Shown here piece after piece: positions 50,122 through 55,051 of a stretch of 64,000 bases of DNA. Location: the NCBI RefSeq assembly GCF_013122565.1, contig NZ_CP053258.1, one strand, 5' to 3'. Below the pieces are notes generated by a model, which did no database searches, had not been told where the DNA came from, and saw nothing but the letters and a program-made list of their open reading frames with translations. Each line of letters starts with the position of its first letter. The stretch's first letter is position 1. A program made the position numbers and the translations under genes. This DNA comes from Escherichia coli (GTDB lineage: Bacteria > Pseudomonadota > Gammaproteobacteria > Enterobacterales > Enterobacteriaceae).

Positions 50122-52191
50122 ATGTCTGAGAAAACTTTTCTGGTGGAAATCGGCACTGAAGAGCTGCCACCAAAAGCACTGCGCAGCCTGGCAGAGTCCT
50201 TTGCTGCGAACTTTACTGCGGAGCTGGATAACGCCGGCCTCGCACACGGCACCGTTCAATGGTTTGCTGCTCCGCGTCGTCTGGCGCTGAAAGTAGCTAA
50301 CCTGGCGGAAGCGCAACCGGATCGTGAAATCGAAAAACGCGGCCCGGCGATTGCCCAGGCGTTCGACGCTGAAGGCAAACCGAGCAAAGCGGCAGAAGGT
50401 TGGGCGCGTGGTTGCGGTATTACCGTTGACCAGGCTGAGCGTCTGACTACCGATAAAGGCGAATGGCTGCTGTATCGCGCCCATGTGAAGGGCGAAAGCA
50501 CTGAAGCACTGCTGCCGAATATGGTTGCGACTTCGCTGGCGAAGCTGCCGATCCCGAAACTGATGCGTTGGGGCGCAAGCGACGTGCACTTCGTGCGTCC
50601 GGTGCACACCGTGACCCTGCTGCTGGGCGACAAAGTCATTCCGGCAACCATTCTGGGCATTCAGTCCGATCGCGTGATTCGCGGCCACCGCTTTATGGGC
50701 GAGCCGGAATTCACCATCGATAACGCCGATCAGTATCCGGAAATTCTGCGTGAGCGCGGGAAAGTCATCGCCGATTACGAAGAACGTAAGGCGAAGATTA
50801 AAGCCGATGCCGAAGAAGCAGCACGGAAGATTGGCGGTAACGCTGACTTAAGCGAAAGTCTGCTGGAAGAAGTGGCTTCGCTGGTGGAGTGGCCGGTTGT
50901 GCTGACCGCAAAATTCGAAGAGAAATTCCTCGCGGTGCCGTCTGAAGCGCTGGTTTACACCATGAAAGGTGACCAGAAATACTTCCCGGTGTATGCGAAC
51001 GATGGCAAACTGCTGCCGAACTTCATCTTCGTTGCCAACATCGAATCGAAAGATCCGCAGCAAATTATCTCTGGTAACGAGAAAGTCGTTCGTCCACGTC
51101 TGGCGGATGCCGAGTTCTTCTTCAATACCGACCGTAAAAAACGTCTGGAAGATAACCTGCCGCGCCTGCAAACCGTGCTGTTCCAGCAACAGCTGGGTAC
51201 GCTGCGTGACAAAACTGACCGCATCCAGGCGCTGGCTGGCTGGATTGCTGAACAGATTGGCGCTGACGTTAACCACGCAACCCGTGCGGGCCTGCTGTCT
51301 AAGTGTGACCTGATGACCAACATGGTCTTCGAGTTCACCGACACCCAAGGCGTTATGGGGATGCACTACGCGCGTCACGATGGCGAAGCGGAAGATGTCG
51401 CGGTGGCGCTGAATGAGCAGTATCAGCCGCGCTTTGCCGGTGATGACCTGCCGTCCAACCCGGTAGCTTGTGCGCTGGCGATTGCTGATAAGATGGATAC
51501 TCTGGCGGGTATCTTCGGTATCGGTCAGCATCCGAAAGGCGACAAAGACCCGTTTGCGTTGCGTCGTGCCGCACTTGGCGTACTGCGTATTATCGTTGAG
51601 AAGAACCTCAACCTTGATCTGCAAACGCTGACCGAAGAAGCAGTGCGTCTGTATGGCGATAAGCTGACTAATGCCAACGTGGTTGATGATGTTATCGACT
51701 TTATGCTCGGTCGCTTCCGCGCCTGGTATCAGGACGAAGGTTACACCGTTGATACCATCCAGGCGGTACTGGCGCGTCGTCCGACTCGTCCGGCTGATTT
51801 CGATGCCCGTATGAAAGCGGTATCGCACTTCCGTACCCTGGAAGCAGCTGCAGCACTGGCGGCGGCGAACAAACGTGTATCTAACATCCTGGCGAAATCT
51901 GACGAAGTGCTGAGCGATCGCGTGAATGCCTCTACTCTGAAAGAGCCAGAAGAAATTAAACTGGCGATGCAGGTTGTGGTGCTACGTGACAAGCTGGAGC
52001 CGTACTTTGCGGAAGGTCGTTACCAGGATGCGCTGGTCGAACTGGCAGAGCTGCGTGAGCCGGTTGATGCTTTCTTCGATAAAGTGATGGTCATGGTTGA
52101 TGACAAAGAATTGCGAATCAACCGTCTTACCATGCTGGAGAAACTGCGCGAATTATTCCTGCGCGTTGCAGATATTTCGCTGTTGCAGTAA
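50122..52191 (+). CDS. glyS: Glycine--tRNA ligase beta subunit
   Basis: 689-aa [39 protein letters not shown]... Confidence 0.97.
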
Positions 52192-52205
52192 TCGATAAGT
52201 AATGG

Positions 52206-52241
52206 AAAAACCGACATTCATTTTGGGTGTCGGTTTTTTTT
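52206..52241 (+). terminator. Rho-independent terminator of glyQS
   Basis: Stem aaaaaccgaca / tgtcggttttt with 11-nt loop, followed by T-run (52234..52241). Confidence 0.8.
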
Positions 52242-52259
52242 AATCTTAAGGAATGAGAT

Positions 52260-52619
52260 TTGGCAAAGTTACGAAAGATAGTGGTGGCTGGTCGCACCTG
52301 GTTTTGGGTTTATCGTTACTACTATGCAGATGAGCGAGATTGTTATTTAAGGATAATAAGCGAAGATAAAAAAGCACAGTTTGTAATCTATTTCAGAACT
52401 CCTACTTACCATTACGGTTGTCACCCATTAAATGATGGCCTGCCAGCTTTATACAATAATGTAAAAATCAATATTAATTTGAATCAACCTCGCTTTGTGG
52501 CTCAGTTACTGACTTATGTGTTGGAGAATATTCTTCAAGGTACACCATCAGATGTAATCGAGTACGAGAACGGTAATGAGATGTTACAGCAGCTTGGGTA
52601 TGAGTTTGATTATAAATAA
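52260..52619 (+). CDS. Hypothetical protein, 119 aa, TTG start, AT-rich orphan ORF
   Basis: ORF track 52260..52619 (MAKLRKIVVAGRTWFWVYRYYYADERDCYLRIISEDKK...); AGGA 9 nt upstream of TTG; visibly AT-rich compared with flanking glyS; no family recognised. Confidence 0.4.
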   Translation: MAKLRKIVVAGRTWFWVYRYYYADERDCYLRIISEDKKAQFVIYFRTPTYHYGCHPLNDGLPALYNNVKININLNQPRFVAQLLTYVLENILQGTPSDVIEYENGNEMLQQLGYEFDYK

Positions 52620-52894
52620 TAAAATCCTCATGCCCCATAAATCCTGGTTAATACGATTGTGTTTAATAATCACCTGTTGAATATAATATTATTTATCTAT
52701 TCATTAAGTGAAATTTTTTTTCGGAATTTATCAACAAGAGTGAAATCAGAATTTACGCTAGAATAGCTGCGGGTGCTTGAGACTGTTTGTCTCAGGTATT
52801 CACCGAAAGGCAGACAGAGAAAAGCCCCACCTGACTATAAATCAAAGTGTACTGCACCCATTTTGTTGGACGATGAAATGGAATAGCCCCTGAT

Positions 52895-53416
52895 ATGTCA
52901 AAGCCAAAATACCCTTTTGAAAAGCGCCTTGAAGTCGTGAATCACTACTTCACTACTGATGATGGTTACAGGATCATCTCGGCACGTTTTGGTGTCCCCC
53001 GAACCCAGGTCAGGACATGGGTTGCCCTCTATGAAAAACATGGAGAAAAAGGTTTAATTCCCAAACCTAAAGGTGTTAGTGCTGATCCAGAGTTGCGTAT
53101 TAAGGTCGTGAAAGCTGTGATCGAGCAGCACATGTCCCTTAATCAGGCTGCTGCTCACTTTATGCTTGCTGGTAGTGGTTCTGTAGCCAGGTGGCTGAAG
53201 GTTTATGAAGAGCGCGGAGAAGCTGGTTTACGCGCGCTCAAGATTGGCACCAAAAGAAACATTGCAATATCAGTTGATCCAGAAAAAGCGGCATCAGCAT
53301 TGGAGCTGTCAAAAGACCGACGCATTGAGGATCTTGAAAGGCAAGTTCGATTTCTTGAAACGCGGCTTGTGTATCTAAAAAAGCTGAAAGCCTTAGCTCA
53401 TCCCACGAAAAAGTGA
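52895..53416 (+). CDS. insJ: IS150 OrfA (HTH DNA-binding protein)
   Basis: 173-aa ORF MSKPKYPFEKRLEVVNHYFTTDDGYRIISARFGVPRTQVRTWVALYEKHGEKGL... Confidence 0.95.
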   Translation: MSKPKYPFEKRLEVVNHYFTTDDGYRIISARFGVPRTQVRTWVALYEKHGEKGLIPKPKGVSADPELRIKVVKAVIEQHMSLNQAAAHFMLAGSGSVARWLKVYEERGEAGLRALKIGTKRNIAISVDPEKAASALELSKDRRIEDLERQVRFLETRLVYLKKLKALAHPTKK

Positions 53417-54264
53417 AAGTACTCAACGAGCTAAGGCAGTTTTATCCTCTTGATGAGCTTCTCAGGGCTGCGGAGATACCGCGCAGTACGTTTTATTACC
53501 ATCTAAAGGCTCTCAGCAAGCCTGACAAGTATGCGGACGTTAAAAAGCGTATTGGTGAGATTTATCATGAGAATAGAGGCCGATACGGATACCGTAGGGT
53601 AACGCTGTCTCTTCATCGAGAAGGGAAACAGATTAACCATAAAGCTGTTCAGCGCCTGATGGGAACCCTCTCACTTAAGGCAGCGATTAAGGTCAAGCGA
53701 TACCGCTCTTACAGAGGAGAGGTAGGGCAAACCGCCCCCAATGTTCTCCAAAGAGATTTCAAGGCTACGCGGCCAAACGAGAAGTGGGTTACCGATGTTA
53801 CTGAATTTGCAGTCAATGGGCGCAAGCTGTATTTGTCTCCAGTAATAGATCTCTTCAACAATGAAGTTATTTCTTACAGCCTTTCGGAAAGACCTGTGAT
53901 GAACATGGTTGAGAATATGCTCGATCAGGCATTCAAAAAGCTTAATCCTCACGAGCATCCTGTTCTGCACTCTGACCAGGGATGGCAGTATCGTATGAGA
54001 AGATATCAAAATATCCTTAAAGAACATGGTATTAAACAAAGCATGTCCAGAAAAGGCAATTGTCTGGATAATGCTGTGGTGGAGTGTTTCTTTGGAACCT
54101 TAAAGTCGGAGTGTTTTTATCTTGATGAGTTCAGTAATATAAGCGAACTGAAGGATGCTGTTACGGAATATATTGAATACTACAACAGAAGAAGAATTAG
54201 CCTGAAATTAAAAGGTCTGACTCCAATTGAATATCGGAATCAGACCTATATGCCTCGTGTTTAA
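53413..54264 (+). CDS. insK: IS150 OrfB (DDE integrase/transposase catalytic domain)
   Basis: 283-aa ORF overlapping insJ; DDE region (WVTDVTEF..., HSDQGWQY...); OrfAB fusion expected by -1 frameshift at the heptamer. Confidence 0.95.
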
Positions 54265-54306
54265 CTGTCCAACTTTTTGGGGTCAGTACAAAGTGAGGCT
54301 GCCTCT

Positions 54307-54520
54307 ATGCTTCAACAACATAAGGTTAGCCTCTTACTCGTTGGAAATCAACACAGGAGGCTGGGAATGCCGCAGAAATACGGATTACTATTCGTTAATA
54401 GTGATTTGTTTCACGCTTTTATTTTTCACCTGGATGATAAGAGATTCACTGTGTGAATTGCATATTAAACAGGAGAGTTATGAGCTGGCGGCGTTTTTAG
54501 CCTGCAAATTGAAAGAGTAA
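54307..54520 (+). pseudogene. hokA: hokA locus (Hok-family membrane toxin), apparently frameshifted and separated from its upstream region by IS150
   Basis: Hok C-terminal domain SLIVICFTLLFFTWMIRDSLCELHIKQESYELAAFLACKLKE is encoded to the stop at 54518..54520, but the Hok-type start MPQKY (ATG 54367) is in the +1 frame and reads MPQKYGLLFVNSDLF... to a stop at 54454. An overlapping mok-like frame starts at ATG 54307. Confidence 0.55.
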
Positions 54521-54679: not shown

Positions 54680-55051
54680 ATGAATAAACTGCTTTTACTG
54701 TTGATAATGCTTTATCAACGACATCTTTCTCCTCGCAAAGGATACCGCTGTGCTTACAGTGTGTTGTACCAAACGCAGGGATGTTCGGGAGCAGTCAAAG
54801 AGATTATTCAACAGAAAGGTGTTATTGCAGGCTGGGGCGATATACGTCAGCGTTTTGCAGATTGCCGACTTGCGGCAAAGACAATCAGGCAGAAGCAACA
54901 CCTGAACGAGGTAATACGTAAAAAGAAGAATAATGATTGTGATTGTTCCGGGTGTGATGGTGCGGTCTGTCGTGATTGCGACATTCCGGTGCCGGATCTG
55001 GATTGTTCCTGGGACTGTTCTTCTCTACATTTAAAGCGGTTTTTCCAATAA
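54680..55051 (+). CDS. YidD-like (DUF37-like) protein with cysteine-rich C-terminal tail
   Basis: 123-aa ORF MNKLLLLLIMLYQRHLSPRKGYRCAYSVLYQTQGCSGAVKEIIQQKGVIAGWGDIRQRF... resembles the YidD core as I recall it (YQxxISP..G..CRF.P.CS...G.IKG.W); tail NNDCDCSGCDGAVCRDCDIPVPDLDCSWDCSS holds 8 Cys; GGAG 8 nt upstream. Confidence 0.5.
   Translation: MNKLLLLLIMLYQRHLSPRKGYRCAYSVLYQTQGCSGAVKEIIQQKGVIAGWGDIRQRFADCRLAAKTIRQKQHLNEVIRKKKNNDCDCSGCDGAVCRDCDIPVPDLDCSWDCSSLHLKRFFQ

Follow-up and report, generated by a model that had tools for sequence, protein, structure and literature searches.

Heterogeneous polyimmunity loci bring together established families of immunity proteins, SUKH, SuFu, and ankyrin proteins among them (Zhang et al. 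2012, PMC3482391). Polymorphic-toxin immunity proteins of this kind (SUKH/SMI1_KNR4, SuFu, Imm-ank, Imm1-74) are among the described systems closest to the 119-aa protein considered here, which is encoded directly downstream of glyS in a 64,000-nucleotide stretch of Escherichia coli DNA (RefSeq assembly GCF_013122565.1, contig NZ_CP053258.1; hereafter the window). Like them, the protein is small, single-domain, cytoplasmic, and of mixed α/β type, and its family has a few conserved aromatic and polar residues, no catalytic signature, and a patchy, apparently horizontally transferred distribution; some family genes also share same-strand arrays with genes for SUKH, SuFu-domain, and ankyrin proteins, and one member is likewise fused to another small domain. 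Unlike them, the family matches no Pfam immunity model, and its fold matches amount to noise; moreover, no cognate toxin gene adjoins any of the loci examined, and the Escherichia gene is solitary in a housekeeping neighborhood. A second likeness is to the Firmicutes DUF families that adjoin or are fused with members (DUF2262, DUF4241, SF0329, and DUF1266), which are equally compact, conserved, single-domain, annotated only as "hypothetical protein", and placed in variable accessory neighborhoods; the present family differs from these in being devoid of any Pfam or NCBIfam model and in having a small, isolated foothold in one proteobacterial genus. The third system is the immediate neighbor, hok/sok (hokA/sokA; RF01794, HOK_GEF), which shares with the open reading frame (ORF) the status of a small accessory element in the glyS–cspA intergenic hotspot. 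Despite this proximity, neither the hok mRNA nor its regulatory elements include the ORF, which encodes a soluble 14-kDa protein instead of a 50-aa membrane peptide, and the two are separable in nature: nearly all E. coli have hokA but lack the ORF, and members of the ORF family in Firmicutes are found without hok.

An earlier note on this DNA had singled out the interval 52260–52847, between the glyS terminator and IS150, as an AT-rich region with an orphan ORF that might be a remnant, an immunity-type or toxin-associated protein, or spurious. The composition is as described, with 30–38% GC in 200-nt windows across 52200–52800 against 52–60% in glyS, and the contrast extends to codon positions (GC1/GC2/GC3 of 0.46/0.29/0.36 for the ORF and 0.67/0.38/0.60 for glyS). 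The extent needs trimming, as the ORF ends at 52619 and the DNA from approximately 52644 onward is a separate unit, the promoter and leader of hokA (Table 1). The initiation context, too, holds in its main part, a TTG start preceded by AGGA, but the spacer is 7 nt, not 9. Stop codons are frequent in DNA as AT-rich as this 119-codon region, and an ORF of at least 119 aa appeared in only 7 of 5,000 dinucleotide-preserving shuffles of 52192–52660, making a chance ORF of this length unlikely. Judged from sequence comparisons, the ORF encodes a genuine 119-aa cytoplasmic protein that belongs to an uncurated single-domain family, and annotation pipelines should call the TTG-start gene at 52260–52619.

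Table 1. Features of the window from glyS to the gene preceding cspA (positions in the window)
Feature	Position	Strand	Basis
glyS, glycine--tRNA ligase beta subunit, 689 aa; upstream core gene	50122..52191	+	ORF
Lineage-specific segment, ~450 bp, 36% GC, with its own terminator and the ORF	52192..~52643	.	Alignment A1, blastn
Intrinsic terminator 3' of glyS	52205..52241	+	Read from sequence, RNAfold
Shine-Dalgarno AAGGA, 7 nt 5' of the start codon	52248..52252	+	Read from sequence
Gene for 119-aa protein of an unnamed single-domain family	52260..52619	+	TTG start; ORF list, orthologues, homologues, AF2 model
hokA promoter and 5' part of the hokA mRNA leader; outside the ORF unit	52644..52847	+	Aligns with E. 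coli hokA-upstream DNA
IS150, 1443 bp, in the hokA leader	52848..54290	+	Ends and 3-bp AAG target duplication located
insJ (IS150)	52895-53416		ORF list
insK (IS150)	53413-54264		ORF list
Rest of the hokA locus (mok/hok)	54291..54520	+	Alignment A4, ORF translations
Gene for 123-aa Cys-rich YidD-like protein, between hokA and cspA	54680..55051	+	ORF

Ordinary E. coli has a different terminator (AAAAAGCCTGCC...GGCAGGCTTTTTT) after the glyS stop codon, with the hokA-upstream DNA coming immediately next. Alignment of the window with two such E. coli loci (alignment A1) reveals that the ~450-bp segment takes the place of ~57 bp of typical E. coli, that is, the usual glyS terminator, and Megablast homology to E. 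coli resumes at ~52662. The hokA-upstream DNA of the window matches 5,394 of the 5,426 complete E. coli genomes at ~84–86% identity, whereas the ORF-bearing DNA has no blastn match in any of the 5,426, a word size of 11 included. Given these counts, and given that the segment ends before the hokA-homologous DNA begins, the ORF is not what is left of the original hokA-upstream region, and this suggestion of the earlier note has to be dropped. The gene was not found either in 100,044 GTDB species-representative genomes searched with peptide patterns and an invariant 40-mer, and the representatives of other Escherichia species also proved to be without it. Phage or plasmid cargo was considered as well and rejected: neither 72,556 plasmids nor 50,697 phage records gave a tblastn match to the ORF protein, an IMG/VR scan with the family patterns found no relative, and a Foldseek search of viral structures (BFVD) returned nothing at E ≤ 1e-3. 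Over the surrounding ~30 kb, a comparison that covers core genes including xyl, malS, avtA, glyQS, and bisC (window 30000–64000), the best identity to any of the 5,426 complete RefSeq E. coli genomes is only 98.1–98.7%, and the window therefore derives from a somewhat divergent E. coli-like lineage; glyS and glyQ themselves are 98.4–98.5% identical to the annotated E. coli genes. The presence or absence of the ORF marks an uncommon version of the region, which occurs in E. fergusonii and in a small number of divergent E. coli-like lineages.

Only four clusters were returned when 5.8 billion proteins were searched by word index; they are 99%, 92%, 88%, and 87% identical to the query, and their labeled members are "hypothetical protein" entries of E. 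coli or E. fergusonii. The exact protein of the window, with Asp at residue 98 where all relatives have Gly, was not among these matches, the best of which is the 99% identical one. The carrier contigs, which comprise E. fergusonii chromosomes (L003–L007), CP057686 (L008), metagenome contigs (L009–L011), and an E. coli draft (L012), are all ordered ysaB–glyQ–glyS, ORF, hokA, and the orthologues at this locus are 119–121 aa in length and 87–99% identical. An intact frame is kept in all five Escherichia sequence types, including two lineages in which an in-frame 6-nt insertion extends the protein to 121 aa. The Shine-Dalgarno AAGGA is invariant in 6/6 aligned loci, and in L008 the start codon is ATG in place of TTG. 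Replacements cluster in residues 11–59, while residues 60–119, which hold the family motifs, are almost invariant; within predicted secondary-structure elements, the substitutions are mostly conservative (F/L, I/V, and M/I), and the variable residues are weakly but not significantly enriched in predicted loops (13/50 loop versus 11/69 structured positions, p = 0.25). In comparisons among the window, L012, E. fergusonii (L003), and L008, Nei–Gojobori estimates of omega, which rest on few changes, are 0.5–1.0 and do not fall significantly below 1; against the most divergent lineage, L009, omega is ~0.3, with a significant synonymous excess (p = 0.0015–0.006). Selection on the ORF within Escherichia is thus detectable but weak, and the Escherichia sequences alone would grade the ORF as probably coding; what settles the coding question is the existence of a wider family beyond this genus. 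With the frame kept at the locus in five Escherichia sequence types and homologues in Firmicutes and Bacteroidota, the suspicion of a spurious ORF is rejected, and the view of a real orphan gene stands, its frame being conserved as coding sequence.

The wider family emerged from a phmmer search of 1.84 billion cluster representatives, which gave 50 matches at E ≤ 1e-3, including 11 with E ≤ 1e-10; almost all are 110–135 aa in length and align end to end. One match, the 998-aa cadherin-repeat protein P0053, was discarded as a false positive. A profile search added ~100 clusters, all single-domain, none with a precomputed Pfam domain, and with "hypothetical" as the only kind of existing label. 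The members, 115–165 aa in length, are found mainly in gut and soil Firmicutes, the named sources being Enterocloster, other Lachnospiraceae, Ruminococcus, Oscillospiraceae, Paenibacillus alvei, Paenibacillus turicensis, Listeria, Isobaculum, and Apibacter. The relatives from Firmicutes and Bacteroidota are 25–47% identical to the ORF protein. Among the sampled members, Escherichia is the sole proteobacterial genus, and there the gene always occupies the glyS–terminator–ORF–hokA site. Common motifs in alignments A3 and A5 are RKIxV...W.Y, LNxGxPA, (I/L)NLNxP, and G..(I/L)L..LGY, with invariant or near-invariant positions at R5, W16, F45, G60, N73, N75, P77, L109, G113, and Y114. The N-terminus rich in Tyr and Trp, regarded earlier as unusual, is indeed present, with RKIxV preceding an invariant Trp that lies in a Tyr-rich hairpin, but it is a feature of the whole family and not an oddity of this ORF. 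The same alignments contain no conserved His, Cys, Ser, Asp, or Glu suggestive of catalysis and no conserved residue pattern suggestive of a ligand site.

Curated resources do not cover this family. At E ≤ 10, no Pfam or NCBIfam family matched the window protein, which also had no PADLOC match and only marginal ones in PHROGs (E 0.017). When 42 members of A3 were scanned against the curated libraries, no family matched more than two of them, and the sole significant match was the DUF2262 part of the fusion protein P0026. The statement in the earlier note that the ORF has no recognizable family is consequently right for Pfam, NCBIfam, and PADLOC, and nearly so for PHROGs, but clear homologues exist outside of curated collections. 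An AlphaFold2 model built with A3 is confident (pLDDT 87.8, pTM 0.83) and predicts a four-stranded meander (residues 5–45), a short helix, a hairpin (61–72), a long helix (77–91), a strand, and a helix, in this order. Foldseek against the PDB gave nothing at E ≤ 1e-3, and sequence-profile searches of the PDB with A3 and A5 gave noise only (E ≥ 0.15); the predicted fold thus appears unmatched as compared with the PDB and BFVD. A predicted fold with neither a solved nor a viral relative, together with the lack of a Pfam or NCBIfam entry, makes the group a candidate new DUF-type family. The existence of the gene is not new, since E. fergusonii records already contain it under the label "hypothetical protein". 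What is new here is that the ORF truly belongs to a sizeable uncurated family whose predicted fold is confident and has so far found no match, such that a possibly spurious ORF becomes part of a defined gene family of ~100 clusters with clear motifs. The practical consequence is modest: a solid piece of small-gene annotation, with no surprising mechanism and no bearing on a long-standing open question.

The glyS terminator recognized in the earlier note is real. It consists of an A-tract, a 10-bp stem (52211–52220/52224–52233, with two G–U pairs), a TTT loop, and T8 at 52234–52241, has a folding energy of −17.4 kcal/mol with its flanking A/T tracts (RNAfold), and is kept in all carrier lineages (alignment A2); a consensus terminator scanner did not detect it. 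Its sequence is entirely unlike that of the ordinary E. coli glyS terminator, and with an A5 tract before the stem and T8 after it, the element could act in both directions. Only 18 nt separate the end of the T-run (52241) from the start codon, and the Shine-Dalgarno sequence begins at 52248. A promoter scan found no promoter-like site on the + strand upstream of the ORF, and a promoter of its own was rejected on these two grounds. As the gap between the T-run and the Shine-Dalgarno sequence is too short to hold a promoter, we infer expression by read-through: glyQS transcripts that pass the terminator most likely support low-level translation of the ORF, with glyS as the likely source of transcription into it.

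As for the origin of the cassette, the simplest reading is acquisition by horizontal transfer from a low-GC donor into an ancestor of the carrier lineages, because the segment has 36% GC, the relatives are in Firmicutes, and the gene is absent from the sources checked. On entry, the ~450-bp cassette would have replaced the normal glyS terminator, and it would since have been inherited or exchanged together with its flanks while missing from mainstream E. coli. Since the best identity outside of Escherichia is only ~40–50%, the transfer either took place long ago or came from an unsampled donor. Between the window and E. fergusonii, the ORF DNA is ~95% identical, similar to the divergence of the adjacent glyS, so the cassette has traveled with its flanks, vertically or by homologous recombination. 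The same resemblance in divergence would also fit an ancient presence in Escherichia followed by loss in E. coli, a possible course of events. Under horizontal acquisition, the ORF represents a small example of what looks like gene flow from Firmicutes to Escherichia. On inspection, the surroundings of the cassette showed no obvious sign of a mobile element.

The genomic neighborhoods of the family are diverse. Across ~50 homologue loci, there is no universal partner gene, and the two flanking genes on each side contain no recognized toxin domain; in the window, the gene directly upstream is glyS. The Imm, SUKH, and SuFu Pfam models matched none of the 42 members even at E ≤ 0.1. The immunity-type protein suggested earlier is possible, in that some homologues adjoin SUKH, SuFu, ankyrin, or Macro genes, although neither an adjacent toxin nor a match to an immunity model accompanies this. 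In P. alvei, two SMI1_KNR4 genes and an ankyrin gene lie within 4 kb, with an SF0329 gene nearby; a SUFU-domain gene is directly upstream in L063, a DMP19-like gene directly downstream in L062, and a Sel1+DUF4241 gene directly upstream in L039/L040. In a Lachnospiraceae clade (L036–L038, L050, and L054) with members 67–99% identical, a Macro-domain gene follows directly at 10–330 bp, succeeded by an HD-domain gene in L036–L038. On the corresponding genome contigs (L031–L035), the pair of family member and Macro gene lies near BrxC/BrxD-like ATPase and helicase genes, surroundings that may mark a conflict or defense island. Another clade has a CPT-type kinase gene directly upstream, and GNAT, APH(6), ANT, NUDIX, glyoxalase, cytidine-deaminase-like, and HD genes are close by at other loci. 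Several metagenome loci consist of tight same-strand arrays of small unannotated genes, and P0026 carries the fusion to DUF2262. Overall, polyimmunity-type contexts are found in a minority of loci, and most show unrelated small enzymes. In the two Paenibacillus loci, the small upstream genes share no homology, and a literature search on DUF2262, DUF4241, and the glyS/hokA/IS150 combination yielded nothing relevant.

The best guess at function, a tentative one with clearly less than an even chance of being right, is a stand-alone, non-enzymatic binding or neutralizing protein of the orphan-immunity type; such a protein would protect against an incoming protein toxin by binding and neutralizing it, not as an enzyme. 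It is suggested by the lack of a conserved catalytic residue, the small globular mixed α/β architecture, the sporadic distribution, and the occasional arrays with immunity-type genes or neighboring Macro-domain gene. The many neighborhoods that hold only miscellaneous small enzymes (GNAT, APH, ANT, CPT kinase, NUDIX, and HD) count against it and fit other roles equally well. One such role would be a cytoplasmic accessory function apart from immunity, as a partner or regulator of nucleotide-handling, ADP-ribose-handling, or xenobiotic-modifying enzymes, or as a ligand-binding stress protein. The Macro gene immediately downstream throughout the Lachnospiraceae clade, with its HD successor in L036–L038, the CPT-type kinase gene immediately upstream in another clade, and the GNAT, APH(6), ANT, NUDIX, glyoxalase, and cytidine-deaminase-like genes near other members all speak for it. 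However, no partner is conserved family-wide, the Escherichia gene stands alone, with a tRNA-ligase operon on one side and a type I toxin locus on the other, and the conserved residues form no pattern for a ligand or catalytic site; furthermore, the association may be mere background, since such enzymes are generally common in Firmicutes accessory regions. An accessory function of this sort is regarded as unlikely. The account as a whole, in which a real family gene of horizontal origin is expressed by read-through and specifies an orphan-immunity-type binding protein, without a functional tie to hokA or IS150, is given slightly better than an even chance. Its most far-reaching form would make the ORF the first noticed Escherichia member of an undescribed stand-alone toxin-immunity or neutralizing family, with a fold without a solved relative, that moved in from gut Firmicutes and, through low-level read-through, offers pre-emptive protection against a competitor's toxin; put this strongly, the idea is improbable.

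It may also be asked whether the Escherichia copy still serves any function. It could be a drifting relic, an old acquired gene that is no longer usefully expressed, stranded behind the glyS terminator and simply not yet disrupted. The omega values of 0.5–1.0 among the window, L012, L003, and L008 are compatible with drift, as are the strong terminator 18 nt before the start codon, the empty + strand promoter scan, the absence of the gene from most E. coli and from the other Escherichia species representatives, and the dead state of the adjoining hokA in the window (IS150 plus a frameshift). Yet an intact frame is kept in all five sequence types, even across a 6-nt in-frame indel, together with an invariant Shine-Dalgarno sequence and, in one lineage, a start codon improved to ATG. 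The near-invariance of residues 60–119, the mostly conservative substitutions in structured elements, and the significant purifying selection in the contrasts with L009 also oppose decay, which we consider rather unlikely. Far more remote is a role for the ORF within the hokA/sokA type I toxin–antitoxin locus, as component or regulator, or as cargo of IS150. Its appeal lies in position, in that the ORF is always directly upstream of hokA in Escherichia and IS150 lies ~230 bp downstream of it in the window and in L010. Against this, the ORF is missing from 5,394 E. coli genomes that do have the hokA-upstream region, it ends ~140 nt before the hokA −10 element and thus outside the hok mRNA, no Hok/Gef (HOK_GEF) gene is found near the distant Firmicutes homologues, and the ORF lies outside the IS150 inverted repeats and is carried without IS150 at the E. 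fergusonii loci. Membership in either element was in effect refuted by these distribution data.

The neighbors themselves show the glyS–cspA intergenic region to be a hotspot for small accessory elements, which in the window include the ORF, hokA, IS150, and a yidD-like gene. The −10 element of hokA (TAGAAT) is at 52759–52764, and a match to the Rfam hok/sok model RF01794 starts at 52771 (86 bits). In the window, the hokA frame (54369–54520) has a +1 insertion, TTACTATTCG versus TTACT-TTCT in L001, L003, and L008; frameshifted and, in addition, split from its promoter by IS150, hokA has been inactivated twice. An annotated IS150 is located at the identical position of the hokA leader in E. coli GMF054 (L002), after ...AAATCAAAG and with the AAG duplication, and the L009/L010 lineage has a variant IS150-like element within a few bases of the IS150 site of the window. 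Such near-coincident insertions point either to a site that is favored as a target or to one old insertion that recombination has spread.

The product of the YidD-like gene has a YidD-like N-terminus and a Cys-rich tail. The gene is absent in E. coli F8704, present in E. fergusonii loci, and found, annotated as yidD, in 112 of the 5,426 complete E. coli genomes. Among ORF-carrying loci that extend past hokA, it accompanies the ORF in the window, L003, and L005–L008, and in L004 no such gene is called; it also occurs in genomes that carry no 119-aa ORF.
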